Below are positions 1 to 23,070 of a DNA stretch of 56,140 nucleotides, piece after piece. The translations under genes and the position numbers were made by a program. The stretch lies in the IMG/VR virus record IMGVR_UViG_2563366805_000004, positions 1 to 56,140 of that record; one strand, given 5' to 3'. Numbering within the stretch: the stretch's first letter is position 1; each line of letters starts with the position of its first letter. The notes beneath the pieces were generated by a model. It was not told the DNA's origin. It ran no database searches and worked only from the letters and a program-made list of their open reading frames with translations. Source of the stretch: a virus (Duplodnaviria > Heunggongvirae > Uroviricota > Caudoviricetes).

Positions 1-1490
1 TCTGCGATGGTTTTGTAGCCAGCCTTGAACGCTTCTGATTTCTCATTAATCTCCTCTGGAAGTTGAATCATGACGAATCTTCGAGACGAACCATCGACGC
101 TATTTGCTGCAATAGTTGCATGTGCGGTAGTCGCCGATCCTGCAAAAAAATCCATCACTATATCGTCGCCTGCCGTGGTCATTTCCACTAGTGCCTGAAT
201 GATCGTTTCATCCTTCGGAAAATCAAAAACATGTGCTTCCATCAACGCATCAAGTCGAATTGATGCACCACGCCCATCTTGATAGAAAACGCTGTAAGCA
301 GCTTCTTTGTTTGCCTCGTGAAGATATACCTTTAATGTTGGCCGTGTCTTTTCGTCTGCACCAAATCGAATACGCTCATCTGCAAGCAACTCCTTCATGC
401 GCTCCGGGGCAAATGACCAGCCATTAGGATGCATATTCACTGGTTTCCCAGTTATTGGATGCAAAATTTCATAGCGCGAGCGCGATGTGGGCTGTGGTTT
501 GCGAAGATCACTTGCAAAATAGATACCTCGCTTGTCAACGTATTGATAGTGTTTATGCCGCTTACTTGGATCGCTATCGGAGAGGCTGCTATACCATTTT
601 CGCAAGCCAACTTCGACAGCCGCATCGTCACCACCAAACTTACGGCGCAACTCCGAATAGGTTTTCTCAATTTCGGTGAGACCCTTTTTCAGAATTTGCC
701 ACGAGGCTCCTCGCTCTTTAAGAGCATTCATACTACGCGCAAAGCAAATGATGTATTCGTGTGACGCCGATATAAAGCGCGAGTCATTCTTTCGTCCAGC
801 AGCCCAAACCATCGTACCTACAAAATTCTCTGCACCGAAAACTTCACTGGCTATACTTTTTAAGTTCTCAAATTCAGCATCATTGATGGAGATAAAGATG
901 GCACCATCTTCTTTTAATAACCCCCTGGCAAGACGAAGCCGTGAATAAATCATTGAGAGCCAATCGGAATGAAAGCGACCATTCGATACTGTGTTAGCCA
1001 CCAACCTATTTCCGTCTTCATCTACTTGATTTGAACGACGCAAGTATTCGTCTGCATCTTCGGCAAAGTCATCCTCGTAAATAAAGTCGTTCCCGGTGTT
1101 GTACGGCGGATCAATGTAGATCAGCTTCACCTTGCCCAGATACGTCTCCTGCAACAGCTTCAGTGCATCAAGGTTGTCTCCCTCAATGAACAGGTTCTTC
1201 GTCGTATCGAAGTCCACACTTTCCTCACGCACCGGGCGCAGTGTCTTGGCAATCGGCGCGTTAGCCGCGAGCAAGGCTTCGCGCTTACCGGGCCAGTTCA
1301 GGTGGTAGCGTTCTTGCGGTCCTTCCACAATCGACTCAGCAAGCTCCTGCCGCAGTTGGTCAAAATCCACCGCCAGTTTCACACTGCCGTCTTCGCCCTT
1401 GGCTTCGGTGATGCAGCCTGGAAACAGATCGCGAATGCGGGCGATGTTGTCCTGCGTGAGATTTGGTGAATGCATTTTTAGCTTTTCCAT
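1..1490 (-). CDS. Type III Mod-like N6-adenine DNA methyltransferase, partial (C-terminus beyond window start)
   Basis: Minus-strand frame opens at ATG 1490 (MEKLKMHSPNLTQDNIARIRDLFPGC) after a GAGGA RBS and has no stop before the window edge, so it is absent from the ORF track. Same frame carries DPPYNTGNDF near 1100 and DFFAGSATTA near 130-158, the motif IV-then-motif I order of beta-class Mod enzymes. Confidence 0.8.
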   Translation of the reverse strand, partial: MEKLKMHSPNLTQDNIARIRDLFPGCITEAKGEDGSVKLAVDFDQLRQELAESIVEGPQERYHLNWPGKREALLAANAPIAKTLRPVREESVDFDTTKNLFIEGDNLDALKLLQETYLGKVKLIYIDPPYNTGNDFIYEDDFAEDADEYLRRSNQVDEDGNRLVANTVSNGRFHSDWLSMIYSRLRLARGLLKEDGAIFISINDAEFENLKSIASEVFGAENFVGTMVWAAGRKNDSRFISASHEYIICFARSMNALKERGASWQILKKGLTEIEKTYSELRRKFGGDDAAVEVGLRKWYSSLSDSDPSKRHKHYQYVDKRGIYFASDLRKPQPTSRSRYEILHPITGKPVNMHPNGWSFAPERMKELLADERIRFGADEKTRPTLKVYLHEANKEAAYSVFYQDGRGASIRLDALMEAHVFDFPKDETIIQALVEMTTAGDDIVMDFFAGSATTAHATIAANSVDGSSRRFVMIQLPEEINEKSEAFKAGYKTIA

Positions 1491-1549
1491 GTTCTTTTCC
1501 TCTGGACGTCGCACTGTTGCGCGGCGTCCTAATTCTTTCTGGGCTGGTT

Positions 1550-2965
1550 TTATTCGGCGTCAGAATTGTTTTGGTGTTTGAGCTCGGCAAATTTGGCAGC
1601 CATCGTTGGGTTGCCGCGCGTGAGTCGCTTGACCGTCAGGTCTTCGGCTTTATCGTTGGCAAGCCGAAGATTGTTGGCGGACTTGTGCAGGGCTTCTTTG
1701 GTCTTTTCAAGGTCCTTGATGGCTTCGTCGATGCGCTTGACCGCTTCTTCAAACCCATCTGAAGCCAAACGCCAGTTGCGACCGAATGCGGTCTTGAAGT
1801 CATCGAGCTGGGTTTCAAATTGGGTGATGTCGATGTTCTGCGCCTTCACCAGCGCCAGCTCGGACTTGTATTGAAGTGACTTCATCGCTGCATTGCGTAG
1901 TAGCGTGATGATGGGGATGAAGAACTGAGGCCGAACGACATACATCTTCGGGTAGCGGTGAAACACATCAACGATCCCAGCGTTGTAAAGTTCACTGTCT
2001 GGCTCCAGCAGGGAAACCAGCACGGCGTATTCGCAACCTTTTTCGGTGCGGTCCTTGTCGAGCTCCTTGAAGAAGTCTTCGTTTTTCTTCTTGGTTGCTG
2101 TTTCGTCGCCTTCGTTCTTCATCTCGAACATGATCGAGACGATCTCGGTGCCTGCATCATCCATGTCCCGGAAGATGTAGTCGCCCTTGCTGCCGGTGCG
2201 AACGTCGTTGTCTTTTTCGAAGTAGGCCATTGGGAATGCGGTGGCTCGGAGACGGTTAAACTCAATCTCGCAATGCTGCTCCAGGGTTTCCCCAATCATC
2301 TTGGTCGACAGCCGTGCCTTCATGTCCCGCAGACGTACAATCTCACCATCGCGATCTTTAAGCTGTGTTTCGTATTTATCTTTGAGTGCAGTCTCGGCAA
2401 GTTGCTTTTCCAATGCTGCTCGCTCTAGTCCGTTCTTGAGTTCGTCACGCTCCTTCGTCACCACGCTGACCGCTTCGGTGAGCGCGAGCTTTTGTGTAAC
2501 TTCGCCCGCTGCAAGCTTGGCCTGCAGACGCTGAATCTCCGCATCCTTGGTGGCCTCGGCTTGCTGTAGCTCACTTAATCGCTTCGCCTCGGCCAGTTGA
2601 GCTTTAGTTTCAATCTCTTGCTTTGCTTTTTCCAGCGCGTTCCTCAGTGCATCGCGATCTTTTTCTACCGCGCTCAGCGCCTCACTGACAGCAAGCTTTT
2701 GCGCCACCTCTCCTGCATCCAGCCTAGCCTTTAATGCCTGGATTTCGGCATCTTTTTCAGAAGCAGCCTTCTGCAATTCGCTGGTAACCTTGGCTTGAGC
2801 CAGCTCGACCGCATTTTGCTTGTCCCTTTCGGCCAGCTCAAGGCGTTCATGTAACTGCTTCTCAAAGTCAGCATCGCGAACCTGTTTCAGAATGTCTGAG
2901 TAACCAGCTTCATCAATCTTGAAAGCCTTGCCGCAATGGGGGCAGATGATTTCATGCATAGTCAT
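1550..2965 (-). CDS. Zn-ribbon plus long coiled-coil protein, DUF2130-like
   Basis: 471-aa ORF with N-terminal CPHCGK zinc-ribbon motif, a long E/K/A/L-rich heptad region and a conserved C-terminal domain; start overlaps the upstream stop by 4 nt (ATGA); GAAGGA RBS. Confidence 0.6.
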
Positions 2966-4842
2966 TTTCCTTCTACCTTGGCCAAAATTTGCTGGAGCAT
3001 CTCTGGCACCGCCCCTGCGGATTTGAGTGTCGCCGTGCGGTATGCGAGTTGGTTCTTCGAGAGACTAATACCTGTGGCAATCTCGATTTCACTGCAAGCA
3101 GCTAGCCACTCAGGCCAGTTGGCTACGAGAAATGATTCCAGATGGTCTTCAAAAATGGCGACTGTGTCGCCTACGACAGCTTCCGGAAAATCTTCTTCAG
3201 CAATACCGAAGTATTTCAGAGCTGTCCGGTTTTCTCGGGCATTTTTTGCAAGTTCTTCATCGATCTTGTTTTGCTGTTTTCCTTTGGCTTTTGCTCGCGC
3301 CGCACATGCTCTGTCAGCATCGAAAAGCGCATAAACCGGGATACCGAGTGCGGACAGGATGGCATGGACAAGAGGAATCGACGTCTTGCCTCCGACTGGG
3401 ACAATGGAAATACCAGCGGCTTCAAGCGCACCATGAGATATTTTGTCGCCTATACCGTGGAACACCGATGACTCGGTGGTACCCTCCACAAGAAAAGCGC
3501 GATGGGCAAAGAGGGCTACAGCCAGTTGCTCTGAAACGATGCCATCTAACTGACGTTCGACAACATCACCATTTACTATCTGGTGCAGCCTGGTCTTCAC
3601 ATCATCAATGGAGGCAAAGTGGATAGTCACAGTCGGAGTCTCTCCAGATGATCGCGTCAATCTCCTGACATGATCAAAATGGCGGGCCTCAAGGAAATAA
3701 GGGCTGTGCGTTGCATAGGTTACTTGGATACACTTGTCGGGGTCTTCAACAAGTGAGCGGAGCACTTTTGCAAACGCCTGTGCCTGAATCGGGTGCTGAA
3801 AGAGCTCAGGTTCTTCAATTGCTAAACAGATGACTCCGTCGGCTGAAGCTGCTCCCGATTGTGCCAAGAGCTGGAGCGCCGAGATCAGAATAGTCCGCTG
3901 AAAACCATGCCCCTGTCGCTCTACCGCTGTTTCGGTTGTACCATCGAGCACGGATACTTCGAACGTGGTCTTGGGGGCTTTGAGCTCTACCTCTGCGGGA
4001 GAAACCGTGACCGCCCGACCGGGTGAGTATGAGCAAACAACCTCGTTAAGCTGCGTCGTCATCACCTTAAGCTGGGCTTGGAATTTCTCTTCGTAGACTT
4101 TCTGCTGCTTTGCTCTGGACTCCTCGACGATTGCCGCAATCTCCTGATCTGCCGCTGCACGATCAACGGAGCGTTCCAGGATGCGTCCGATGATGCTCGA
4201 TTTACCGTCAATGGACTCTTCGCTTGCACGAAGGTCTGCAGTCACCAGCACAAAATCGAAGAGGCCGCTCATCTTGCCGCCGCTGTTGAAACCAAAGAAG
4301 TTGGTTTGCAGCGATTCGGGGGCGTCTACGAGTAACTCTGTATGTGATGCCTCCCAGGTAGTCATTGCCTGGTCAATGGCTGTACCGGTAGTGGCTGTAG
4401 GAAGCTCCAGCTCTGGACGACTAGTTCTGAGATTTGTATAAAGCTCCCTCTTCGCCGCTACGCCATTTGCAGTTTTGATTACGTTGAACTCTGGGAATCC
4501 CTTTGCGTTTGCAGAGAGCACATCGGTGCCGTCAGCTGAACGGCGCTTCCACGCCGTGAATGTAGCTGCGCCCTCTGGAGTGTACTTACCAAGCGCCTCC
4601 CGATCCTTTTCGGTGAGATCTGCGAATGTGACTTGCACCTCGATGTCTTCGCTAGCTTCTCCAAAGGAGCAGTCTTTCTCTGTCAGCGAGCCGGGCTTGC
4701 CGTTGAAGAACCAATCGAGTGCATGTAGCACTGTCGACTTGCCAGCGCCGTTCGGCCCTATGAATGTCGTAACGGAGTCGAAGGGAATCGTGACGTCTTT
4801 GAGTGCCCGGAAGTTTTTGATGCGAACGGATTGAATCTTCAT
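2962..4842 (-). CDS. OLD-family ABC-ATPase / Toprim nuclease
   Basis: 626 aa; N-terminal [14 protein letters not shown]...[11 protein letters not shown] Walker A; C-terminal Toprim signatures FLVEGTTE and a DxD motif (ALFDAD). Confidence 0.8.
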
Positions 4843-4876
4843 TTCAGTTTTATTCCCTTATACCTGTTGTGATCTA

Positions 4877-5566
4877 TCAATGTTTGAGTTCTTCCAGTTC
4901 TATTTTCAACATTCGCAGTTTGGCGTTGATCTCTACCTTGCGGTTGAATTGTTTTTCTTTGGCAAGTCTGCTGGCTATTTTTTCAACCTCACGTTGCTTG
5001 GCTGCAACCAGTTCGACACGTGCGACCAAATCCGCGAGACTTTCTTGTAGGCGCGCGGGCGTGGAGATCAGGCTGTGAAGCAACTGCTCATACAAGCCGC
5101 CCAAGTCGAGTGCTAAGGGCATGGCGGCGCGCTCACAGTCACTCGGCAACCAGGCTGTTGCAAAGTAGTCACTCAAGACCCAACGGCTGGCGTCTGACTC
5201 ATTGGGGCGTTTGTACGCAGCGATCACCTTTGTTCGGCCATCAAAGCTCAGCTCGAAGATAATGGGAAACTGCACTGCGCCATCGATGCAACGCAAAACG
5301 TCCAGATTCAGCTCCGATGCCTTGAGCTGGATTGAGAAAATCTGAAGCTCTGGTACTCCCAGCCTGGCGGGCAGGTTGATCGTTTCCGGAGCCAACTTGT
5401 ATTGCCAGACGATCTGCTCCACCTGCTCGACGAACAAGTCCTTCAGCCTCGTATTGGCGCCGCTGTGTTCGTAGATCTTATTCTTTGGCAGGGTACGACC
5501 AAAGACAGCCTGCTTCGGATAGTTGATGAACGCGGTATTCGACTCAAATCGCGCAGACTGACTCAT
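4877..5566 (-). CDS. DUF4391-like protein
   Basis: 229-aa ORF, 4-nt overlap with helicase stop; family assignment is from recollection of this domain next to helicase/methyltransferase genes, not verified. Confidence 0.5.
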   Translation of the reverse strand: MSQSARFESNTAFINYPKQAVFGRTLPKNKIYEHSGANTRLKDLFVEQVEQIVWQYKLAPETINLPARLGVPELQIFSIQLKASELNLDVLRCIDGAVQFPIIFELSFDGRTKVIAAYKRPNESDASRWVLSDYFATAWLPSDCERAAMPLALDLGGLYEQLLHSLISTPARLQESLADLVARVELVAAKQREVEKIASRLAKEKQFNRKVEINAKLRMLKIELEELKH

Positions 5567-8500
5567 CCGGCCTCCTGAATCACGAGGAAGGTAATCAGTT
5601 CGAAGTCGTCCAGTCCGACGATAGTATTGACCAACGCGGTGGTCTTTCCGCTGCAGAAGAGGCTGTCCAGATCCTTATCTTCCTTCACCTCGATCATTGA
5701 GCGGATGGCCTTGCCAAGCAGGTCCGAATACATCTGCATCTTGCGGCCATCGGCCGTTTCCTTATTGAACAGGAGACAGGCATCTGTAATAGGCTGGGCT
5801 TGTCCCTTGCAGCAGGTGCGAACCAGATCCAGCAAACGTTTGACTTCGGTGTAATCGTGAATGACTTCCCCCTCGCGATTAATGTAGACGAGGTAATAAG
5901 GGTGCAGGCGGTTGTGCTGACTGACGTTGACGCTTGGATTCCGGTTGCGTAGCGTGAAGATTACACCCGGGCGTAGGCCCATCTCCGGCTTGGCAGGCAC
6001 TACGGCGTGCATCCCGCTTGGCACGTTGCTCATTTCGCCATTGGCCTTCACATAGTTGAGCAAGTCCATTCGGAAGTCATTGAGCCCGAGATCAGTAATC
6101 GACACTCCGGTTTTCAGGTCTTCCAGCTCAATCACTTCCTCTTGCAAACGTCGCAATTGCTCTTTGCGATAAGACACATCGTTGGCTTGGGCGCTCAGCA
6201 CATTGTCGTCACCGGTGGCAGTGACATCGGCAATCATCATTCGGCTTTCAACCCGTTCCTTCAGGTTGATGTATTCGTCGAGCGAGATGTCTGGCCAGTA
6301 GTTAACCAGTTGGATGCTGCTGTTGGGTGAGCCGATGCGATCCACACGGCCGAAGCGCTGGATGATGCGCACGGGATTCCAGTGGATGTCGTAGTTGATG
6401 AGGTAGTCGCAGTCCTGTAGGTTCTGGCCTTCAGAGATACAATCGGTGCCGATCAACACATCTATCTCTGCCTCCTCATTTGGCAGCACGATGGCTTTCT
6501 CCTTCGAGTGCGGCGAGAAGAGGGTGAGCAGTTCCTGGAAGTCATAGCTCTTCTTGAGCGTGCTCTTCGGTGCCCCTTTGCCGGTGACTTTTGCACTGTG
6601 CAAGGTCTGTGTAGCCAGCAATTCCGGAGCCAAATTGGCATACAGATAGTCAGCGGTGTCGGCGAAGGCGGTGAAGATCAGCACCTTCTTGTTGCCAGGA
6701 TTCAGCGGTGCTGCGATCTTTTCCAGAACCAGTGCTTTGAGATGCTGCAGTTTGGCATCATCGGCAGCCGTGATCTTGTTCATCGACGTCAGCAAAGCAT
6801 CAATGATTTCCAGATCGACCTTCAGCTCGTGCTCCCAGGAAGGCAAGTCCATATCGGCGAGGCTGATTTTGACCTTGCCACCGATCTCACTGTCGCCATT
6901 GCTTGGCAGGTCGTCGTCCGCGTCGAGGTTTTCTAACTGGTCGGTCAGGTCATTTATTCTGCTATCAATGCCACTGAGGCCGCCAGTCTCATTGAAAGTG
7001 CTGATCTTGGCCAGCGTATTAGTGTGGTTCGCGCGCAGGGACTTGAGCGTCAAGCGGAAAGACTCAATCGAGCTTTCCAGGCGCTTGAGCAGGTTGGTCG
7101 TCATCAATGCCTGCAAACTCTTTTCACGGTCGATTTGTTTAAGCTTGCCTTTCCCTGCAACCTGAGTGTCATACATCTCCTCGTACTTCTTGAGCCGACT
7201 GGGCAGAATGTAGCTGATCGGGGCATAAACGGCGAGCTTGAGCAAAGACAGCTGCTCGAAGATCTCGTTGAAGCTCATCACATCCGTTCGCTGCGTGAGC
7301 GGACAGTGGAACGACAAGGGTTTGCGGCGCTCGGGGAATTGGCCTATTTCCTTGGTGTCGTAGAAAGTCTGGATATGCTTGCGTGAGCGTGCGATGGTGA
7401 CGCTGTCGAGCAATTCGAAGAAGTCGAAGTCCAACGAGTCCAGGATGGCCCGCGCTGTGCGCTCTTCCGGTGGAAGCTTTGCCCATGCATTGAAGCTGGC
7501 CTGCGCACCACGGAAAATGTCCTCTACCGTCTTGCCGGTACGCAGCTTCTTGCTGAGGTTTTCGGAATCGCCTTCGTAGGCCAGTGCCAGTTGGTTGCGC
7601 AGGTCATTGAAGCGGTTGTTCACCGGGGTGGCCGAAAGCATCAGCACCTTGGTCTTCACGCCTTCCTTGATAACCTTGTTCATCAGCTTCTGGTAGCGGG
7701 TTTCCTTGTCCTTATAGGCGTCATTGTTGCGGAAGTTGTGTGACTCGTCGATGACGACGAGGTCGTAGTTGCCCCAGTTAATGCGATTCAGCGGTGTGCC
7801 AAATGACTCACCGCTCGTACGGCTGAGGTCGGTATGACAAAGTACGTCGTAGTTGAACCGGTCGCGAGCAAATATGTTGGTTTTGAGGTTACGGCTGTAG
7901 TTCAGCCAGTTGTCCGCCAGCTTCTTGGGGCATAACACCAGAACTGACTTGTTGCGCAGTTCGTAATACTTTATCACGGCCAGCGCGGTGAAAGTCTTGC
8001 CCAAGCCCACGCTGTCGGCCAAGATGCACCCGCTGTAGCTCTCAAGTTTGTTAATGATCCCGGTGGCAGCATCTTTCTGGTAATTGAAGAGTTTGTTCCA
8101 GATGAGCGTGTCTTGATAGCCTGTGCGGTCGTTCGGTAGGACATCCTCGTTGATGTCGTCCAGAAACTCATTGAAGATATTGTAGAGCATCAGGAAGTAG
8201 ATGCTCTCGGGCGAGTTTTCCTGGTAGACGGATGCAATGTGGTCGCAGATCTGCTCCGTTACATCCTCCAGCTTCTCAGGATCTTGCCAGATCTGGTTAA
8301 ACAGACTGAGGTAGGTCGCCGTAAACGTCGACTCGTCCATTTTGTTGACGAGGTTTGAGACAGCGTTGCCTTGCTGGTAGCCAAGATCGACGGCGGTAAA
8401 TCCGTGCAGTGGCATGTAGGCAGTCTCTGCGGCGGCGGCCTGAACACAAGCAAACTGCTGCATCGGAGCCTTGCTGCGATTGGACTTGAATGTTGCCTTG

Positions 8501-8844
8501 CGCCGCATCCAGTCCGCGCACTCTTTTGCAATTGCGCGCTGGGTCAGTTTGTTACGCAGCTGAATTTCGAACTCACTCCCGTACAAGCTCCGTTCGCGGT
8601 CAGCCTTCGGTATGTGAAATTCTCTGCGTTCCTTGCGAATCTTGTCGGTAACCTCGTTAGCGGTAAACGTCGGTGAGGTAAAGATGAATTGCAGCTCGTC
8701 GATTTTTTCCAGCTCTGCTTTGAGCGCTTCGAACGCGTACATCGAAAAGCAGGAGGCGGCGATCTTCAGGCGAGCACTAGGTTTGAGCGTCTGCTTTAGG
8801 TCGTCTCCGAGCAGGTGGTTGATATTGTCGATCAGTTCCATCAA
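5563..8844 (-). CDS. SNF2-family (SF2) helicase/translocase with ~250-aa N-terminal extension
   Basis: 1093 aa; motif I LADSVGLGKTFTA, motif II VVIDESHNFRN, motif III LMLSATPVNN, motif VI QRFGRVDRIGS; no recognisable nuclease motif seen by eye. Confidence 0.85.
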   Translation of the reverse strand: MMELIDNINHLLGDDLKQTLKPSARLKIAASCFSMYAFEALKAELEKIDELQFIFTSPTFTANEVTDKIRKERREFHIPKADRERSLYGSEFEIQLRNKLTQRAIAKECADWMRRKATFKSNRSKAPMQQFACVQAAAAETAYMPLHGFTAVDLGYQQGNAVSNLVNKMDESTFTATYLSLFNQIWQDPEKLEDVTEQICDHIASVYQENSPESIYFLMLYNIFNEFLDDINEDVLPNDRTGYQDTLIWNKLFNYQKDAATGIINKLESYSGCILADSVGLGKTFTALAVIKYYELRNKSVLVLCPKKLADNWLNYSRNLKTNIFARDRFNYDVLCHTDLSRTSGESFGTPLNRINWGNYDLVVIDESHNFRNNDAYKDKETRYQKLMNKVIKEGVKTKVLMLSATPVNNRFNDLRNQLALAYEGDSENLSKKLRTGKTVEDIFRGAQASFNAWAKLPPEERTARAILDSLDFDFFELLDSVTIARSRKHIQTFYDTKEIGQFPERRKPLSFHCPLTQRTDVMSFNEIFEQLSLLKLAVYAPISYILPSRLKKYEEMYDTQVAGKGKLKQIDREKSLQALMTTNLLKRLESSIESFRLTLKSLRANHTNTLAKISTFNETGGLSGIDSRINDLTDQLENLDADDDLPSNGDSEIGGKVKISLADMDLPSWEHELKVDLEIIDALLTSMNKITAADDAKLQHLKALVLEKIAAPLNPGNKKVLIFTAFADTADYLYANLAPELLATQTLHSAKVTGKGAPKSTLKKSYDFQELLTLFSPHSKEKAIVLPNEEAEIDVLIGTDCISEGQNLQDCDYLINYDIHWNPVRIIQRFGRVDRIGSPNSSIQLVNYWPDISLDEYINLKERVESRMMIADVTATGDDNVLSAQANDVSYRKEQLRRLQEEVIELEDLKTGVSITDLGLNDFRMDLLNYVKANGEMSNVPSGMHAVVPAKPEMGLRPGVIFTLRNRNPSVNVSQHNRLHPYYLVYINREGEVIHDYTEVKRLLDLVRTCCKGQAQPITDACLLFNKETADGRKMQMYSDLLGKAIRSMIEVKEDKDLDSLFCSGKTTALVNTIVGLDDFELITFLVIQEAG

Positions 8845-9746
8845 GAGTCAGCCTTTGTAGCGGCGCTATAGCCTGGTGCCAGTAAGGCGTTTTTCACGCC
8901 GTAAATCGCGAGATGATCTTTGAGCCATAAACGGTACTCCGGTCCATTTAGGCAATGATCGGGTGAGCAGTCAACCCGCCAGCGCTGCAACATATAGCCC
9001 ACTACAGCCGCGCGAACGCGCATCCTAATCGAGCCATCGGCCATCCCGTAGTCCATCTTGATGATCTCGGGGCGTTCAATGCGCGGGTGCGGCACGAAAT
9101 CCAACTCGACGATGCGCGTCCACTGGATATCATTATCCGGTCGTTCGTTGGCCTGTGGAACCTCTTCAAGCAATGTTGGCGCTTCGATGCGGGTGACGAC
9201 GAAATCCCGAAACTCTCCACTTTTGCGATCAAAGGCCCGGGCGTGCCAGCGCAGGCCGGTATCTACCAAAGCAAAGGGCACAATGACCCGTTCGGACTTG
9301 CCGCTGCTCATCGAGTGGTAGCGGATGGCGACGGGGCGCTTGGAGTGGATGGCTCGACAAATCACGGCCAACACATCCATCTTGGGTATGCTCAGGACTG
9401 TGGGGGATTCACAGGGTAGCAACGCCTGCATTGGGCCATTCACGCCATCGCCAAAGCCCAGAGCCAGCGCCGACAGAACACGCTGCGATGCGTGCTCGAA
9501 TAACGGAGAGAACGCCTGCCCGATACGATAGATCTTGTCGCTACCATCAAAGGTGATGTTATTCGGAGCGATTTCCCGGTACAAAGCCAAATCGCGAGTC
9601 GCTCCTGCTGGAGCAACGCCAAAGCGCTCAATCAAATCTGGGCGACCGATCTCACCGAAGAAGTAAAGCCGAAAATCGATGTAGGCCAGCCGTTCGCGCT
9701 GGACCTGGCTCAAGTCGTCAAGCCGCTTACAAGGGGGACTAGGCAT
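8841..9746 (-). CDS. WYL-domain transcriptional regulator, BrxR/CapW-like
   Basis: 301 aa; N-terminal wHTH signature ERLAYIDFRLYFFGEIGRPDLIERFGVAPAGATRDLALYREIAP; stop overlaps helicase start (ATGA); first gene of the co-directional operon. Confidence 0.8.
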   Translation of the reverse strand: MPSPPCKRLDDLSQVQRERLAYIDFRLYFFGEIGRPDLIERFGVAPAGATRDLALYREIAPNNITFDGSDKIYRIGQAFSPLFEHASQRVLSALALGFGDGVNGPMQALLPCESPTVLSIPKMDVLAVICRAIHSKRPVAIRYHSMSSGKSERVIVPFALVDTGLRWHARAFDRKSGEFRDFVVTRIEAPTLLEEVPQANERPDNDIQWTRIVELDFVPHPRIERPEIIKMDYGMADGSIRMRVRAAVVGYMLQRWRVDCSPDHCLNGPEYRLWLKDHLAIYGVKNALLAPGYSAATKADS

Positions 9747-10090
9747 GAATCATCACTATAGGGAAAAATTAAAATTTAATACGGTAATCAATAAAGTGCC
9801 ATGATTATAATCAAATTGATGATAATCGACATTAATATTTATGTAAAAGCAAGAGATGACGTTTCAAACGTAGACAGTCATCGTATTAGCCGATGTTTCT
9901 ACAACGTTAGATTAATGCCTAACAACTATAAAACCTTACTGCCCAATGCCCTATCGCCCCTCGGACAATTTGTCCTTACCCACTGATCTGGCTTGAGGAT
10001 GAGGGGGACAGAATAACCTAACGACTTAGTAGCCGGGATCACCGGCGGAAGGGGTCTAACACCTACCTTAACTCAAATTAATTTCAGTTA

Positions 10091-10250
10091 TATATCATCC
10101 CTCTGAACATATCCGATTAACGGCGGAATCTCTCGATCCTGCCGTTTTTGTATTATTTTTCAGAGGAGTAGTAATGAACAATTCTGAAGGTTTGAAGCCA
10201 TTTCAGCAGTCGCTTGATGGTCTGCCACAATGGGTCTCAGAACGAGTCAT
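10091..10250 (+). repeat. Copy A of ~160-bp direct repeat (5' leader plus first codons of yfjP-type GTPase gene)
   Basis: About 80% identical by eye to 17285-17445; contains a hairpin followed by a T-run just upstream of a GAGGAG RBS. Confidence 0.6.
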
Positions 10251-11037
10251 GCAGCAAATTCGTCAACTGACAAACTACGAACCAGTGATCGGCATCATGG
10301 GTAAAACCGGTGTTGGGAAGAGCAGTCTGTGCAATGCCCTGTTTGCTGGAGAGGTATCGCCGGTCAGCGATGTGGCGGCCTGTACTCGTGAGCCACTGCG
10401 CTTTCGACTGCAAGTTGGCGACCGCCATATGACGCTGGTGGACCTGCCCGGCGTAGGCGAAAGTGGCGCTCGCGATATCGAGTATGCTGCGCTGTATCGC
10501 GAACAACTCCCCCGGCTCGACCTGGTGCTGTGGTTGATCAAGGCTGATGACCGGGCGCTGGCAGTAGATGAACACTTTTATCATCAGGTGATTGGGGAGG
10601 CATACCGGCATAAGGTGCTGTTTGTTATCAGCCAGTCGGATAAGGCCGAACCCACCAGCGGTGGGAGACCATTGTCCATCACGCAGAAGCAGAACATCAG
10701 CCGCAAAATCTGTCTGCTGCATGAGCTGTTCCAGCCCGTACATCCAGTATGTGCCGTGTCGGTCCGTCTTCAGTGGGGGCTGCGGGTGATGGCCGAGCGA
10801 ATGATTAAGTGTCTGCCACGTGAGGCCACCAGCCCGGTGGTGTCGCAACTCCAGCCTTCCTTTCGCACGACGTTAGTCCGGGAGCAGGCTCGTAGCGATT
10901 TTGGTGAAACCATCGGTGCTGTACTCGATAGCATCAGTGCCTTTCCCCTGATACCCGCCCCGGTGCGGGCCGTCATTCAGGCCGTGCGCACCACTGTGGT
11001 GTCAGTGGCCCGCGCCGTCTGGGATTTCTTCTTCTAA
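10174..11037 (+). CDS. yfjP: YfjP/YeeP/YkfA-family GTPase
   Basis: 287 aa; P-loop GIMGKTGVGKSSLCNAL and DLPG motif; length and order match the CP4-57 backbone. Confidence 0.85.
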   Translation: MNNSEGLKPFQQSLDGLPQWVSERVMQQIRQLTNYEPVIGIMGKTGVGKSSLCNALFAGEVSPVSDVAACTREPLRFRLQVGDRHMTLVDLPGVGESGARDIEYAALYREQLPRLDLVLWLIKADDRALAVDEHFYHQVIGEAYRHKVLFVISQSDKAEPTSGGRPLSITQKQNISRKICLLHELFQPVHPVCAVSVRLQWGLRVMAERMIKCLPREATSPVVSQLQPSFRTTLVREQARSDFGETIGAVLDSISAFPLIPAPVRAVIQAVRTTVVSVARAVWDFFF

Positions 11038-11128
11038 GTATTTAACCCATTCCTGTTATTTCCCTGACCCTGTCGCCGATGCGACGGGGATCCCTTTTAT
11101 TTGTTTTCCCGTTATGAGGAGTCTGCTT

Positions 11129-11950
11129 ATGACCCGTCTGGCTTCGCGCTTTGGCGCAGCAAATTTTATCCGTCGCGACCGCCCTTTAACCCGTGAGGAG
11201 CTGTTTCGCGTGGTGCCCAGTGTGTTCAGCGAGGACAAACATGAGTCCCGCAGTGAGCGTTATACCTATATACCCACCATATCCCTGCTGGGCAGCCTAC
11301 AGCGAGAAGGCTTCCAGCCATTCTTTGCCTGTCAGACCCGGGTACGTGACCCGGGTCGTCGGGAACACACAAAGCACATGCTGCGCCTGCGTCGGGAGGG
11401 ACAGATTACCGGTAAGCAGGTGCCGGAAATCATTTTGCTGAATTCACATGATGGCACCAGTTCGTACCAGATGTTGCCGGGACTATTTCGTGCGGTTTGT
11501 CAGAACGGGCTCGTCTGTGGTGAGTCATTTGGCGAGGTGCGGGTGCCGCACAAGGGGGACGTGGTAAGTCAAGTGATTGAAGGCGCGTATGAAGTGCTGG
11601 GCATTTTTGACCGTGTGGAGGAGAAGCGGGATGCGATGCAGTCGTTGCTGTTGCCGCCACCGGCGCAGCAGGCACTGGCAAAAGCCGCGCTGACGTACCG
11701 CTTTGGTGAAGACCACCAGCCGGTGACTGAATCGCAGATCCTCTCCCCGCGCCGCTGGCAGGATGAGAGTAACGACCTGTGGACCACGTATCAGCGTATT
11801 CAGGAGAACCTGATTAAGGGCGGGCTCAGTGGCCGTAATGCCAAAGGGGGACGGTCACATACCCGGGCCGTTCGCGGTATAGACGGGGACGTGAAACTTA
11901 ACCGGGCACTGTGGGTGATGGCGGAAGCGATGCTCACGCAACTGCGGTGA
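11129..11950 (+). CDS. yfjQ: YfjQ-like protein (DUF932 family)
   Basis: Start moved to MTRLASRFGAA (GAGGAG RBS 8 nt upstream); sequence matches recollected YfjQ/YeeQ N-terminus. Confidence 0.75.
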   Translation: MTRLASRFGAANFIRRDRPLTREELFRVVPSVFSEDKHESRSERYTYIPTISLLGSLQREGFQPFFACQTRVRDPGRREHTKHMLRLRREGQITGKQVPEIILLNSHDGTSSYQMLPGLFRAVCQNGLVCGESFGEVRVPHKGDVVSQVIEGAYEVLGIFDRVEEKRDAMQSLLLPPPAQQALAKAALTYRFGEDHQPVTESQILSPRRWQDESNDLWTTYQRIQENLIKGGLSGRNAKGGRSHTRAVRGIDGDVKLNRALWVMAEAMLTQLR

Positions 11951-12166
11951 CCGTTTCATGTTGCCACGTTGTTAATATCGGACACCACCTGTCCGCATTG
12001 CAACGTGCTGGCGGTCCTTACACACCGAGGGATGGCCTGTAACCCCCGCTACATCTGGCTTTTGCAGAAATAAAAAATAGTTTCTGTGGTGTCCATACCC
12101 TGTCCGCCCCCTTATTTAAAGTAATCACATCATTTTCAGTCAGTTAACTTCCACGGAGAACGTCTC

Positions 12167-12868
12167 ATGACACAGGCAGAACGCCGCCATGACCGGCTGG
12201 CTGTCAGACTGTCACTGATAATCAGCCGTCTGGTGGCGGGGGAAACGCTGAGTGTGCATAAGCTGGCCGCTGAGTTTGGTGTGTCGGTGCGCACGCTGCG
12301 GCGTGATTTTCGCGAGCGGCTGATGTATCTGGACCTGGAGTATCAGTCCGGATATTGCCGCTTACGTACTGCTGGCAGTGAAATGCAGATGGTGCCCGAC
12401 GTGCTTATCTTTGCTCACCGCAGCGGGCTGGCCGGACTTTTTCCAGGCCTTGACCGCCGTCTGGTGAACGCTCTGCTGATGTGCGATGAGTCTCCCTGCG
12501 TGATAGCACCAGCTAATCCGGTTCCTTCGCCCTCAGGAGCATTGTCTTTCTGGAGACTGATTCAGGCCATTACCGGGCGCAGGCGGGTGACGCTGATTGC
12601 GGAGGGGCGACGCTGTGAGCGCCTGGCTCCCTGCCGATTACTCATACACCAGCAGACCTGGTATCTGGTGGCTGAACACTACGGGCATATCGCCGTATTC
12701 ACACTTGATGAAATCCATCTGATTCATCCTTTGCAGGAGACTTTTCGCCGCAATGACAGTCTGTGCCGTCTGACTGAAGACCCGGTTTTCATTCAGGCCT
12801 TACCCCATTTTCGCTTTATCCAGCAGTCACTGCTTACGTTTGTTCCGGCTGACAGCCCACCGGAATAG
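12167..12868 (+). CDS. yfjR: YfjR-like HTH transcriptional regulator
   Basis: 233 aa; N-terminal HTH ([21 protein letters not shown]); position after yfjQ. Confidence 0.7.
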
Positions 12869-12908
12869 CGTAGGCGTTGTTATCAACCCGGCAACAGGGA
12901 GGAACCCG

Positions 12909-13154
12909 ATGCCCGTTATTGCCATTATCGCCATTGTTGTTATCGTCATCATTCTGAACAAAACCGGGGTGTCCGACAGCCTCATCGCCCTGACGCTTGC
13001 CACCGTTGCCGCTCTGCTGACGGGCGGCGGTGCAGCCGGTGCTGCCAGTGTTGCACTGACGCCGTTCGTCGGTGTGCCGGTGGGTATTTTTGTGGGGATT
13101 TATGTCTTTGCCAAAGTGGTTCGTCTGATTTCAGGAAAAAATAATGAAACGTAA
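12909..13154 (+). CDS. Small hydrophobic membrane protein (YpjK-like)
   Basis: Start at MPVIAIIAIVV with GGGAGGAA RBS; two predicted TM segments. Confidence 0.5.
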   Translation: MPVIAIIAIVVIVIILNKTGVSDSLIALTLATVAALLTGGGAAGAASVALTPFVGVPVGIFVGIYVFAKVVRLISGKNNET

Positions 13155-13587
13155 AACACTACCTCTGCTGGGGCTGGTTGCCGCCACTCTGTTTCTGAGC
13201 GCCTGCGATGACAGGAGTGATGACCTCAAAGCTATCAGTAAATTTAAGGACCTCACGCCTCCGCGCTTCAGCGATGTTGTCAGCCGTCAGGATGATGTCA
13301 GCGAAGAATGGTCCCAGGTTGGCTTCTCATCCGGTCTCACCCTGCAGGTCTTACGTACCCGCCAGTCGCCCGATGGCTGCGAGGGAGGCAGTTACTACTA
13401 TCTGGTGGATATGGAGGAAAAAACCGTCCAGCCGCTGATGAATGCGCTATGTATTGCCGACAACATCAGCCTGGAATACCACGAGAAAACTGACCCGCGC
13501 ACCCGGGAGCGTTTCCTTGAATATTCCCATGACGGCAAACTGATGGGACGGCTGCTGATACCCTCAAATCCTGATAACCGGGAATAA
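13144..13587 (+). CDS. yfjS: YfjS-like lipoprotein
   Basis: 147 aa; signal peptide with lipobox LFLSAC. Confidence 0.65.
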   Translation: MKRKTLPLLGLVAATLFLSACDDRSDDLKAISKFKDLTPPRFSDVVSRQDDVSEEWSQVGFSSGLTLQVLRTRQSPDGCEGGSYYYLVDMEEKTVQPLMNALCIADNISLEYHEKTDPRTRERFLEYSHDGKLMGRLLIPSNPDNRE

Positions 13588-13610
13588 ATACAAAGACAAA
13601 GGAGACAGAA

Positions 13611-14078
13611 ATGAAAGTACGTTCACTAAGCCGGTATGTGCTCTCAGGCGTGCTGCTTACCAGCTTTAATGCCTCAGCGGTTCCCGGACTATGGCAGCAG
13701 GGTTATGGCCAGGGCAATGCGGAATACAGCGTGACGGATGGCAGCGGAAAGATATTTACCATCAACTGCACGGAAAATCCGGACCAGAACGGTATTTACC
13801 AGCACTCGGTTTTTCTGACCCTCGCAGGGGATAAAACGATCAGCTCGCATGATGACAGTACCGACATCACAGTGGTGATGGACCATAAGCAATATGCCAT
13901 TCCCTCAACCCTTGGCTGGCGTAACGGGGATAATGCCTGGTTTAGTTTCATCATGGATATCCGTAAGGCCAGTCAGTTCGACGTCTACGTTAATGACCGC
14001 AAAGCGGGGACCTTCAGCGTTGACCTGACGAACGCTACGAAAGCACTGCCAACATTAGCAGACTGCACTAACGAGTGA
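13611..14078 (+). CDS. yfjT: YfjT-like secreted protein
   Basis: 155 aa; N-terminal signal peptide (LLTSFNASA); position after yfjS. Confidence 0.6.
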   Translation: MKVRSLSRYVLSGVLLTSFNASAVPGLWQQGYGQGNAEYSVTDGSGKIFTINCTENPDQNGIYQHSVFLTLAGDKTISSHDDSTDITVVMDHKQYAIPSTLGWRNGDNAWFSFIMDIRKASQFDVYVNDRKAGTFSVDLTNATKALPTLADCTNE

Positions 14079-14107
14079 CAGTTGTGCTTTCCATCCATAA
14101 CAACATA

Positions 14108-14699: not shown

Positions 14700-16322
14700 T
14701 CATTCTTCCTCATGATAATCGCTCTTGCTCCATAATGGCTTGATAGCGTGATAGGCGCCACTGAATGGACATTTAGAATTTTTGTTCCGCTGGATTCGGA
14801 GCAAATCATCAATATCCTTTTCGATGATTTTTTTTACCTGTGAATGGTATCGCTGAAGTGAGACATCACTAATGGACTTTTCAAAGCGGAGGCTGGTGTC
14901 TTGATTCACAAGATCGTAAACACCGTCTTTTATTTTCATTCTGTTGCCTTCAGGGATGCCCATTTTCAGGTCATAGCATTTCAACCCGGCCAGACGGACT
15001 TCGACACCGACGCGCTCAGTACGTGTTTTCTTGTGGCTAATCAGAAGCACTTTATTGTTTTCGTACCATTTTTCAAAGGATTGCACTATATCTCTGTTCT
15101 TTTGTTGGTTGCCTTGAGAAGCGCTGTAAAAATGATAACTGTTCGAACTATAGACGTGACGTTCCCGGTCGGAGATTTGCGGAATGGTACCTTTCTGCCT
15201 GCGCATCTGGTCGGCAGGCTGCTCATAAATACGTAGTAAGCAGTCTGCGAGAGAGTCTGAAGCATCATGCAACGTATTGGTCTGGATGAGTTTCAGGAGG
15301 GTATCTCGCTTGATTGAAATCTGGCAATAATCGCTCTCCCAAGCCACTGTCGGTTGCTGCTCTTCCCCTTCTGAAGAGGTGGTGATATCAGGCGTAACAG
15401 TGGTGAATTTCCAGACAAATGGTGTTGATTGCGAATATTTGAAATACATCTGAAGCTCAGCCAGCCACTGTATGATCTCCGAAGCATAAATGCCCACATA
15501 CTGGTCGAACAGATATTCGGCGTACTGAGGTGCGCACTGTTCAACAATCCTTTCAATGAACTCAACACGCCCTTCATCGTTAATTAACTTTATTATTTTA
15601 TGGAATACGCCGTTCTTCCGCCTTTCTCCTATCAGAAAATTTGTGTGAACTTTTTCAAATTCGGACAGCCAGTCGGGAGTAACAATGCCGGCATCATGCA
15701 AAGCGGTAATTAAGTTGTAAATTGCATCAGCAAGTATCGGAAGTGAATCTATTTTGTGGAAATCGTTCAATCGGGAAAGTAGCTCCTGGCTGCATGAGTG
15801 CGCAATGGAAAGGTCCTGATGGCAGTAGCCTTTTCGTGCCTGAGGCGGGATTGGCGAACAATGTGTCGGGCCCTCGGCCAAGATGGCAAACATATCATCG
15901 TGAATAAACTGCTCCAGAAGTTTGCTTTGTTCCGTAAAGCGGAACCCCTGCTCTGTTGGCTGCCGGTTCATCTCTCTCCAGGTCTTCAGACTGACCTTGC
16001 CATCATCAAAACCGGCATAGAGTTGATGCATGAAAATGAGTGCATCCATGAGGCTGTCCTGCTTTTGTTCCTTAAAATGAAACTCATATGTGTTCTGAGA
16101 GTAGATTTTGTTGATTTTATTGCTCTGGGCTCGCAGCTTTGTCAGTACCTTGTGCTGCTCATCAAACCACTTGCTGAATTCAGTATCTTCATTCAGTTGC
16201 CGGGCCTTAAGGATGAGGAGAAGTATCTGTTCGCTGATTGCATCATAAATGTTCGGGAAAGGGTTGGCGGCACCAGAAAGAAACGTGCAGAACAGAGACT
16301 TGTTATGTTCAGAATGGTGCAT
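14700..16322 (-). CDS. Hypothetical 540-aa protein, AT-rich (positional equivalent of CP4-57 yfjW)
   Basis: Long uninterrupted ORF in a visibly AT-rich segment with AT-rich promoter-like region upstream (16323-16660); no motif recognised by eye. Confidence 0.6.
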   Translation of the reverse strand: MHHSEHNKSLFCTFLSGAANPFPNIYDAISEQILLLILKARQLNEDTEFSKWFDEQHKVLTKLRAQSNKINKIYSQNTYEFHFKEQKQDSLMDALIFMHQLYAGFDDGKVSLKTWREMNRQPTEQGFRFTEQSKLLEQFIHDDMFAILAEGPTHCSPIPPQARKGYCHQDLSIAHSCSQELLSRLNDFHKIDSLPILADAIYNLITALHDAGIVTPDWLSEFEKVHTNFLIGERRKNGVFHKIIKLINDEGRVEFIERIVEQCAPQYAEYLFDQYVGIYASEIIQWLAELQMYFKYSQSTPFVWKFTTVTPDITTSSEGEEQQPTVAWESDYCQISIKRDTLLKLIQTNTLHDASDSLADCLLRIYEQPADQMRRQKGTIPQISDRERHVYSSNSYHFYSASQGNQQKNRDIVQSFEKWYENNKVLLISHKKTRTERVGVEVRLAGLKCYDLKMGIPEGNRMKIKDGVYDLVNQDTSLRFEKSISDVSLQRYHSQVKKIIEKDIDDLLRIQRNKNSKCPFSGAYHAIKPLWSKSDYHEEE

Positions 16323-19956: not shown

Positions 19957-20032
19957 CCCTTAAGTTCCTAGCCGCTTATCTATAACTATGGAAAAATGTT
20001 AACCCTGACTGTATGTTAACAAAGGGATGTAT

Positions 20033-21241
20033 ATGTCGGTTTTTCATAACTGGCTGCTTGATATCGCAAGCGGGAATTACTTTATCTACATCAAACGCCT
20101 TTCTGCAAACGACACAGGCGCAACAGGTGGCCATCAGGTCGGACTTTATATCCCCTCAAATATCGTTGAAAAGCTTTTTCCATCTATCAATCATACTCGC
20201 GAACTGAACCCTTCAGTCTTCCTTACTGCGCATGTATCATCCCATGATTGCCCTGATACCCAAGCACGCGCAATTTATTACAACAACCGTTATTTTGGTA
20301 AGACCCGAAACGAAAAAAGAATTACGCGCTGGGGGAGAGGAAGTCCATTACAGAACCCTGAAAATACAGGAGCCCTCACAATTCTTGCTTTCAGGTTAAA
20401 CGAACAGAACACTGACTGTTCCGAGGTAGATATATGGGTCTGCGTCAATCCCGATGAAGAGGATATCATCGAGTCTGCTATTGGCGAAATCATACCTGGA
20501 ACCCTAATTTCCGGCCCTGCCGGACAAATTTTGGGCGGATTGTCTCTTCAGCAAACTCCAGTAAATCATAAATATGTTATTCCTGAAGACTGGAAGAAGC
20601 GTTTTCCTTCTGGAAACGAAATTATTCAATATGCTGCTGGCCATTATGCTAAAAACTCCAAGGATCCAGATGAGCAACTGATTGACCGTCGGCGTGTCGA
20701 GTATGATATTTTTCTACTCGTCGAGGAATTACATGTTCTTGATATTATTAAGAAAGGATTCGATTCTGTAGATGAGTTTATTGCATTAGCCAACTCTGTC
20801 AGTAATCGACGTAAATCAAGGGCAGGCAAATCACTTGAACTTCACCTAGAGAAGCTTTTTATCGAGCACGGACTACGGCATTTCTCCACTCAGGCAGTTA
20901 CTGAAGGTAATAAAAAACCAGATTTCCTGTTTCCTTCAGCAGAGGCATATCATAACGTTGAATTTCCTGTAGAAAACTTACGTATGCTGGCAGTAAAGAC
21001 CACCTGCAAAGATCGCTGGCGTCAGATACTGAATGAAGCAGATAAAATCCATCAGGTACATTTATTTACACTGCAAGAAGGTGTTTCTTCAGCACAATAC
21101 CGAGAAATGAAAGATGCGGGTGTCAGACTCGTTGTACCATCAACTTTACATAAAAAATACCCAGAAGCAGTTAGAGAAGAATTAATAACGCTCGGAGCAT
21201 TCATTACTGAGCTGATAGAGCTTTACGCTGAACTATCATAG
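20033..21241 (+). CDS. ecoRIIR: EcoRII-like Type IIE restriction endonuclease
   Basis: Near full-length match to recollected EcoRII (MSVFHN…RLSANDTG…GGHQVGLYIPS…VENLRMLAVKTTCKDRWRQILNEADKIHQVHLFTLQEG). Confidence 0.9.
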   Translation: MSVFHNWLLDIASGNYFIYIKRLSANDTGATGGHQVGLYIPSNIVEKLFPSINHTRELNPSVFLTAHVSSHDCPDTQARAIYYNNRYFGKTRNEKRITRWGRGSPLQNPENTGALTILAFRLNEQNTDCSEVDIWVCVNPDEEDIIESAIGEIIPGTLISGPAGQILGGLSLQQTPVNHKYVIPEDWKKRFPSGNEIIQYAAGHYAKNSKDPDEQLIDRRRVEYDIFLLVEELHVLDIIKKGFDSVDEFIALANSVSNRRKSRAGKSLELHLEKLFIEHGLRHFSTQAVTEGNKKPDFLFPSAEAYHNVEFPVENLRMLAVKTTCKDRWRQILNEADKIHQVHLFTLQEGVSSAQYREMKDAGVRLVVPSTLHKKYPEAVREELITLGAFITELIELYAELS

Positions 21242-21245
21242 GCTG

Positions 21246-21270
21246 ACTCCCGGCTTAAAAGGCCGGGAGA
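21246..21270. other. Perfect 8-bp-stem hairpin between convergent R and M genes
   Basis: ctcccggc ttaaaag gccgggag; no flanking T-run, so terminator function is uncertain. Confidence 0.4.
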
Positions 21271-21275
21271 TGTTC

Positions 21276-22709: not shown

Positions 22710-23070
22710 AATTCCTCCAAGGGGTCTAATGGGTGAAACTTTATCACTCATTCAACCCAGAAGGAAATGTTTTATCTGGATATTTAAACAGTGACTACAA
22801 CGTAATCTAGCACTGGTGATGCTTTGTTAGGCATAGAGAATCATTCTATATACGACTAATGACAGAAAAACAGCAGACAAGTAGTTTGTTCATAAATTAA
22901 CGCATACTATGTGTCTACGGTTTTCGAGACCGGTCCAATCATCAAACGAAACATAAAATTAGCTCACATTATGAGGAAAAGTATCTTTTTTGTACTATGT
23001 AAATTCAAAGGCTTAGCCTCATTTCTCCGATGGTTTTCTCAACACTACTGGTTGTGAGCCCTTGCAATGA

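Follow-up and report, generated by a model that had tools for sequence, protein, structure and literature searches.

Introduction

Class 1 OLD nucleases, such as P2 Old, the Thermus scotoductus enzyme Ts OLD (6P74) and the Vibrio cholerae enzyme Vc OLD, are described in the literature as single genes that do not lie near other defense genes (PMC10568477, PMC12392090). In the class 2 system Gabija, the OLD nuclease GajA is paired with the UvrD-like protein GajB, and in the class 4 OLD-like system PARIS, the ATPase (AriA) and the Toprim protein (AriB, DUF4435) are separate. Defense genes embedded in defense operons have also been documented, among them HEC-02, which consists of an ABC ATPase and a NERD PD-(D/E)xK protein that are both needed for defense (bioRxiv 10.1101/2024.01.29.577857). 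Here, we analyzed a 56,140-nucleotide (nt) stretch of viral DNA, referred to as the window (IMG/VR record IMGVR_UViG_2563366805_000004, positions 1 to 56,140), in which an OLD gene is followed by a gene of the DUF2130 family. The two genes form a mobile cassette (window 1504–4888) situated between the DUF4391 gene and the mod gene of an operon that carries a type III restriction-modification (RM) system. The DUF2130 protein was predicted to be a nuclease, and we tentatively read the locus, at a little short of even confidence, as a co-expressed, cooperative but separable two-nuclease defense cassette embedded in an RM system.

The OLD–DUF2130 cassette lies in an exchangeable slot of a type III RM operon

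Homology of the window to two orthologous Escherichia coli loci, L002 (strain PCP06171 and relatives) and L003 (strain CFT073), ended at position 1503/1509 and at position 4889. These breaks define a 3.4-kb exchangeable cassette (1504–4888), which contains the OLD gene (626 amino acids (aa); 2962–4842, minus strand), the DUF2130 gene (1550–2965, minus strand) and short flanks. Upstream, the slot is bounded by the DUF4391 gene (229 aa; 4877–5566, minus strand), of which the final four codons fall in the variable segment. The backbone of WYL, SNF2, DUF4391, mod and type III res genes was present in 162 of 5,426 complete E. coli genomes. The slot was empty in CFT073, and in PCP06171 and its relatives it was occupied by a gene for a 900-aa UvrD-like protein, with flanks 99% identical to the window. 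E. coli H5/H6 (L001) carried OLD and DUF2130, as does the window, and Hydrogenophaga intermedia carried a SIR2-HerA-DUF2130 arrangement, in which the stop codon of HerA overlapped the start codon of DUF2130; other loci contained OLD alone. The DUF4391/mod junction therefore behaves as a cargo slot (window 4877–4888 and 1490–1550; L001, L002, L003, L072, L118 and L138). The OLD–DUF2130 pair was found in three of the 5,426 complete E. coli genomes and OLD alone in three more, and embedded pairs were also present in Aeromonas veronii, on an Enterobacter plasmid and on many metagenomic contigs. Direct repeats were considered as scars of an insertion. In the window, the OLD and DUF2130 genes lie between copies of a 9-bp repeat, GAATAAAAC, of which about 0.08 would be expected by chance. 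It was absent as a conserved feature elsewhere, and this explanation was rejected.

Six co-oriented minus-strand genes fill window positions 1–9746. The first gene of the operon encodes a WYL-domain/helix-turn-helix regulator (301 aa; 8841–9746), and it is followed by a gene for an SNF2-related helicase (1093 aa; 5563–8844; PADLOC C3a139 “HKD+Snf2”, 4.4e-128), the DUF4391, OLD and DUF2130 genes, and the type III methyltransferase gene mod, which is cut by the window edge and is represented by its 5′ part (496 codons; 1–1490). From the WYL gene to mod, neighboring genes overlap or are separated by at most 59 nt, the distance between the DUF2130 stop codon and the mod start. A sigma-70-like sequence upstream of the WYL gene (9819–9847, minus strand) is the best candidate for the operon promoter, on the basis of its consensus match only (10/12), and no terminator-like sites were found between the genes on the minus strand of the operon. 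At the left boundary of the cassette, the spacer between DUF2130 and mod contains a 9-bp GC-rich inverted repeat (1504–1529); it lacks a subsequent T-run on the coding (minus) strand and is not a terminator there. An earlier reading of the window, made from its letters and hereafter called the original prediction, had placed the OLD gene inside an operon. The five co-oriented genes, the short gaps, the promoter-like site ahead of the first gene and the lack of intergenic terminators agree with this placement, and the positions and strand that it gave for both open reading frames (ORFs) were correct.

The assignment of the host operon to type III RM rests on its orthologs. The encoded part of Mod was 100% identical to the product of the L002 gene, which is followed by type III res, and complete orthologous loci extend further, to a type III res gene. 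The PADLOC models MTase_III and REase_III matched in L001 at 2.4e-229 and E = 0, respectively. Membership of the host operon in Hma or DISARM was also considered and was rejected, because HmaA (1.4e-26) and DrmD (1.3e-33) gave partial matches only and the NCBIfam DrmD model reached 143 bits, below its cut-off of 610.

This organization resembles that of the described embedded defense genes (Hma, BREX and DISARM as well as type I RM; HEC-01 to HEC-04; PrrC in type I RM), in that the cassette is nested in a restriction-type operon, the slot accepts alternative cargo, and copies of the cargo also occur outside the host system. HEC-02 likewise combines an ABC ATPase and a protein of the PD-(D/E)xK fold, which is also predicted for DUF2130. 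The host is distinct, because the window cassette lies among WYL, SNF2, DUF4391 and type III mod-res genes and not in an Hma, BREX, DISARM or type I system. HEC-01A matched the window OLD at the N-terminus only (1.6e-17). Neither DUF2130 nor DUF4391 appears in the text or supplements of the study on embedded genes (10.1101/2024.01.29.577857) or in PADLOC v2, and the E. coli modularity screen makes no mention of OLD or of any DUF. The embedding of defense genes is already known; DUF2130 and the SNF2-DUF4391-type III host are not part of that work.

Conservation of the OLD–DUF2130 pairing

To define how far the pairing extends, metagenomes were scanned with OLD as the anchor, which yielded 80 loci with 61–100% OLD identity, 70 of which had enough downstream sequence to be scored. 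DUF2130 lay directly downstream of OLD in 52 of the 70 (51 scored loci and L107, which is paired but has a frameshifted OLD) and was missing from the other 18. The OLD gene was located inside an SNF2-DUF4391 operon in 29 of the 80 loci, and others adjoined type III Res/Mod, HsdR or Shedu genes. The pair followed hsdMSR in Klebsiella and in E. coli ET245, adjoined GmrSD genes in Gluconobacter, and in some cases had no recognizable RM neighbor, so that at least four kinds of context were represented in all. The paired arrangement, rare among complete E. coli genomes, is common in metagenomes and spread over Proteobacteria. The proposal that OLD acts here with a coiled-coil partner would have lost its footing had the pairing been peculiar to the window, but it recurred across several contexts.

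A second scan was anchored on DUF2130 and covered the GTDB species representatives. It returned at least 596 loci, and the analysis was based on the 80 best of them (57–80% identity). Among the 71 upstream neighbors in these best 80 loci, AAA_15 was found in eight and an OLD-like TOPRIM domain in seven; generic ATPase domains aside, which these OLD proteins have in common with other ABC ATPases, no other family occurred there more than twice, and no downstream family did so either. OLD is therefore the single significant partner of DUF2130. It was upstream of DUF2130 in about 7–8 of the 71 cases, and about 90% of the sampled DUF2130 genes had no OLD neighbor. Co-occurrence, one of the checks that had been named for the pairing, was high when counted from the OLD side and low when counted from the DUF2130 side.

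These counts bear on a possible, though less likely, alternative, in which two independent functions are merely linked: an ordinary class 1 OLD and a stand-alone DUF2130 nuclease would have been juxtaposed once in an ancestor and spread horizontally, and their spacing would ensure co-expression and nothing more. The large share of DUF2130 genes without OLD is as expected from such an arrangement, and so are the unpaired OLD loci. Several observations argue against it. Gene order was constant and spacing near zero over the whole range of OLD identity and in many contexts. The adjacency also recurred independently in Polaromonas (L079), where a 727-aa OLD that is 26% identical to that of the window (PADLOC Old, 5e-97) is followed by DUF2130. 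In addition, DUF2130 adjoined other defense ATPases: two solo DUF2130 genes follow LmuB-like SMC/ABC ATPases (L045 4710–7811, L030 5211–7838), and one follows HerA in the overlapping arrangement described above. No further family recurs beside DUF2130.

Solo DUF2130 genes were also found near defense genes. One lies beside QatABCD in a defense island, and on the Lactococcus plasmid pCV56A (L183 7334–9874) DUF2130 is followed by a gene annotated as a “TrlF family AAA-like ATPase”, with an Eco57I-type RM gene nearby. In E. coli PCP06171, a gene with the same TrlF annotation lies just past type III res (L002 2467–5118).

The junction between the two genes

The original prediction had the OLD stop codon overlapping the start codon of a 471-aa partner. 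An ATGA overlap is indeed present at 2965–2962, but a second in-frame ATG at 2959, located 2 nt past the OLD stop and preceded by GAAGGA 8 nt upstream, is more likely to be the DUF2130 start. This start, which gives a protein of 469 aa, is favored because it matches the start in homologs: among 65 pairs from other loci, 50 had a gap of +2 nt between OLD and DUF2130 and another eight had −4 nt (58/65 together). The RefSeq annotation is likewise the 469-aa form. With either start, the two genes are tightly coupled.

The non-embedded OLD genes (L028, L038, L040, L056, L137, L157 and L160) share a leader about 20–35 nt upstream of the start, with a small TTCG hairpin-like motif followed by a CACAAGGAG Shine-Dalgarno region. 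A conserved 5′ leader hairpin was not supported: RNAalifold returned no structure, and a hand-drawn 4-bp stem paired 61.8% of cells versus 57.5% in shuffled alignments, with 52 of 500 shuffles reaching that value.

The OLD protein is closest to class 1

The window OLD matched the Pfam families AAA_15 (residues 1–383, 2.1e-43) and OLD-like_TOPRIM (residues 444–510, 3.5e-18) and the PADLOC model “Old” (7.5e-59), so that an ABC-type ATPase at the N-terminus and a Toprim domain at the C-terminus are fused in one ORF, as in the OLD family. The closest solved structure was that of the class 1 enzyme Ts OLD (6p74, 1.1e-25), which is shorter by about 100 aa; the structures of GajA (about 3e-7) and of the retron Eco8 OLD matched more weakly, at about 1e-7 to 1e-6. 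The residues with known roles in Ts OLD (PMC7049728) could be located by alignment. In the ATPase, these are Walker A K35, Walker B IEEPE 342–346 (E343/E344), D-loop H350 and H-loop H379, and in the Toprim domain the metal-A residues E453, D508 and D510, all of which are kept. The metal-B residue D381 of Ts OLD aligns with E457 of the window OLD. Judged by this alignment, the catalytic motifs are intact. The assignment as an OLD-family ATPase-Toprim nuclease, which had been made from the translation, is thus well founded, and by sequence and domain content the protein is of the class 1 type.

The window OLD gene lacks the partners of OLD classes 2 to 4, since there is no adjacent UvrD-like helicase, no reverse transcriptase (RT) or non-coding RNA, and no split of the ATPase and Toprim domains into two genes. 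Some members of its clade are lone genes, namely gp28 of the P2-like Burkholderia phage KS5 and an OLD of E. coli SCU-113 that lies in a lambdoid prophage, in line with other class 1 enzymes. Unlike these, however, the window OLD is not a lone gene but sits in an RM-type operon and is coupled to DUF2130; about three quarters of its clade have a downstream DUF2130, and many copies are in or beside RM operons.

Gabija offers a parallel to such a pair, because there too the OLD nuclease gene is followed downstream by a partner that is conserved and tightly linked, and PADLOC GajA models matched the window OLD at 1e-31 and weaker. The differences are that the window OLD is nearer to class 1, as judged from the structure matches, that its partner is a coiled-coil protein with a predicted PD-(D/E)xK domain and no helicase domain, in contrast to GajB, and that the DUF2130 partner is dispensable for persistence of the OLD gene. 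That the partner would be something other than a helicase had been anticipated, and no UvrD or RT domain was found in the operon. PARIS differs in having separate ATPase and Toprim proteins, and the PADLOC AriA model covered residues 1–384 of the window OLD only.

DUF2130 is a predicted PD-(D/E)xK nuclease

The DUF2130 domain spans residues 193–450 of the partner protein (Pfam, 1.7e-90), and a CPHC sequence is located at residues 8–11. An alignment of 36 sequences with 42–58% identity (A1) showed invariant residues at C8-P9-x-C11, E226/E229, K251/D252, K260/D262, D305/R306 and R345-P346-Q347, and E281 and K283 were kept in at least 90% of the sequences. In the AlphaFold2 model (mean score of 80.8 on pLDDT, the predicted local distance difference test), a poorly defined N-terminal hairpin (pLDDT about 50) is followed by a single helix of about 190 residues (19–212), an alpha-beta-beta-beta-alpha-beta core (228–362) and a second long helix of about 80 residues (364–442). 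The predicted core has the arrangement of the PD-(D/E)xK fold, in which strand 2 opens with an aspartate and strand 3 carries (D/E)xK, and its core residues would be E229, D262, E281 and K283. In predicted fold, strand order and D...ExK triad it resembles the nuclease domains of Can2/Card1, McrC, type II restriction endonucleases and Hjc; it differs from them in the two flanking helices and the N-terminal CPxC knuckle. DUF2130 is therefore predicted to be a PD-(D/E)xK nuclease, and more than a coiled-coil protein. A search by sequence returned no relative of DUF2130 among solved structures.

The partner had been described as a coiled-coil protein with an N-terminal zinc ribbon. The CPHC motif and the long helix are present as described, but the zinc ribbon is reduced to a single CPxC knuckle, and the predicted nuclease core comes in addition. 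The Pfam model Zn_ribbon_4 matched residues 6–20 only, over half of the profile (E 0.0086), and alignment A1 contained no second knuckle or other conserved Cys or His near C8/C11. A metal site at CPxC would, we infer, require two DUF2130 chains. The helix contains two tandem 69-aa repeats that are 64% identical (residues ~62–199, window 2380–2790). Tandem Repeats Finder detected no repeat in this region at the DNA level, and the repeat is visible in the protein alone. A third copy appears to be present in 538-aa homologs from Aeromonas, Citrobacter and Shewanella, as judged from overlapping tblastn segments, which suggests that helix length varies in steps of 69 aa.

In Rad50/SbcC, a long coiled coil and a CxxC motif are combined with an ABC ATPase and a nuclease. 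A resemblance to these proteins enters into a further alternative, in which OLD and DUF2130 form an obligate two-component complex and DUF2130 is the counterpart of GajB, for example by supplying in trans a coiled-coil/CPxC “hook” for the ABC heads of OLD. The invariant CPxC with its long helix, the conserved adjacency and coupling, a PHROG SbcC-like family that the helical half matches weakly (E 0.0023) and the precedent of HEC-02 (10.1101/2024.01.29.577857) are all consistent with such a complex. The PHROG match probably reflects coiled-coil composition, however, and the comparison with Rad50/SbcC-Mre11/SbcD is one of analogy only, because here the coiled coil and CPxC belong to the nuclease partner and CPxC is N-terminal, not at the coiled-coil apex. 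Together with the separability of the two genes described below, this makes an obligate complex decidedly unlikely.

RmuC joins a coiled coil and a PD-(D/E)xK domain. On this architecture, DUF2130 could be a recombination, repair or cassette-mobility factor that hitch-hikes with mobile DNA and has no part in defense. The DUF2130 family is very large, with 790 clusters (50% identity, E ≤ 1e-30); many of its solitary copies lie near housekeeping genes, it is carried on 77 plasmids and also occurs in Mesomycoplasma, and no PADLOC model matched it. These properties allow for a non-defense role. Viral relatives were likewise missing, with no tblastn match in 50,697 phage records and no BFVD Foldseek match at E ≤ 0.001. 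Homology to RmuC itself was examined and rejected, as a comparison of alignment A1 with E. coli RmuC by hhalign gave a probability of 0.2% and E 0.26, which is a weak test because the template was a single sequence; the likeness to RmuC is one of architecture only. Moreover, the sole recurrent neighbors of DUF2130 are defense-type ATPases, some solo copies lie in defense islands (those with QatABCD and with the Eco57I-type RM gene and TrlF ATPase), and the distribution is patchy with 60–80% identity across phyla, a pattern typical for accessory genes that spread by horizontal transfer. We consider a role outside defense to be quite improbable. In the literature searched, no paper assigns a function to DUF2130 or links it with OLD; three papers on unrelated subjects name DUF2130, and two name DUF4391.

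The two genes are separable

Several observations show that the two genes can be separated, and some of them also weigh against cooperation between the two proteins. Within the clade, OLD occurs alone between tail genes of phage KS5 (70.7% identity) and in the SCU-113 prophage. Two loci, L118 and L139, have OLD alone in the SNF2-DUF4391 slot and retain 3′ or 5′ remnants of DUF2130, indicating that they are deletion derivatives in which OLD was kept. Paired and solo members are intermixed on a neighbor-joining tree built from 122 DUF2130 proteins, and apart from alignment-end artefacts no residues were found that distinguish paired from closely related solo DUF2130 proteins. Distances between OLD proteins tracked those between their DUF2130 partners only weakly (r 0.37, Mantel p ≤ 0.0005; distant pairs, r 0.21), which points to reassortment within the cassette. 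Both genes are often solo, even among near-identical clade members, and the nuclease assignment of DUF2130 depends on a predicted structure. This evidence fits two independent, co-travelling genes equally well, and the data on mechanism cannot separate a cooperative pair from independent genes that are co-located.

The unpaired OLD loci, the lone OLD genes of KS5 and the prophage, and the many DUF2130 genes without OLD speak more strongly against an obligate two-component OLD variant, the form in which the pairing was originally proposed, and so does the lack of a partner-specific signature in the sequences. The reading that we favor, a cooperative but separable pair, accommodates both the conserved adjacency and the solo copies. 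In this case, OLD and DUF2130 would be co-transcribed from the WYL-controlled operon promoter and translationally coupled, and the cassette would serve as a second-line DNA-targeting defense module beside the restriction system. The second-line role is suggested by analogy with ABC-ATPase modules nested in restriction or defense operons (10.1101/2024.01.29.577857). OLD would contribute ATP-gated nicking and exonuclease activity, by analogy with other class 1 OLDs. DUF2130, probably dimeric through its helix and possibly with one metal shared between the two CPxC knuckles, would be the second endonuclease. Each protein would be autonomous and also act alone elsewhere, with no obligate Gabija-like complex.

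A more far-reaching version is conceivable, although we regard it as unlikely. The pair would then represent a new OLD class, a Rad50/SbcC-like machine split into two proteins, in which the ABC-ATPase/Toprim heads of OLD bind to the coiled coil of a DUF2130 dimer, the CPxC knuckles share a metal, and the PD-(D/E)xK domains cut the second strand and so convert ATP-gated nicks into double-strand breaks. Such a machine might act as a guard that fires when restriction is bypassed or inhibited.

Other features of the window

The defense operon is flanked by genes like those of CP4-type integrative islands, including a GTPase family protein and DUF932 (10174–14100; from ORF layout and RefSeq annotation of neighbors), and the Enterobacter plasmid pAR0468_1 carries the same island with the entire operon. 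A 540-aa ORF on the minus strand (14700–16322) lies in a stretch of low GC content (40–46%) and has no Pfam match; its RefSeq counterpart in PCP06171 is a hypothetical protein. At 20027–22751, a gene for an EcoRII-like restriction endonuclease (EcoRII-N/C, 2.4e-71) is convergent with one for a C5 cytosine methyltransferase (4.7e-78), and the two make up a second RM system of the same island. A lambdoid prophage segment occupies approximately 24500–49800 on the minus strand and encodes a tail fibre, tip attachment protein J, a tape measure protein, a ClpP-protease/capsid fusion and terminase gpA, as well as an N6/N4 DNA methylase (48714–49766). It is followed at 50–52 kb by a low-GC patch (33–35%) with ORFs that have no Pfam match.

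Implications for OLD nucleases and the DUF2130 family

Reviews have asked whether class 1 OLDs have partners or broad anti-phage roles. The locus described here indicates an OLD clade of wide distribution and horizontal mobility, whose members usually travel with a conserved second predicted nuclease and often lie inside restriction operons. The DUF4391/mod slot of SNF2-type III RM operons could be mined for further defense genes. The pairing also provides a first functional handle on DUF2130, a very large family that is conserved unusually well across phyla. If the split Rad50/SbcC-like machine were to prove true, DUF2130 would serve as a general plug-in effector with which defense ATPases of the ABC and HerA types, including OLD, LmuB-like proteins and SIR2-HerA, are equipped.

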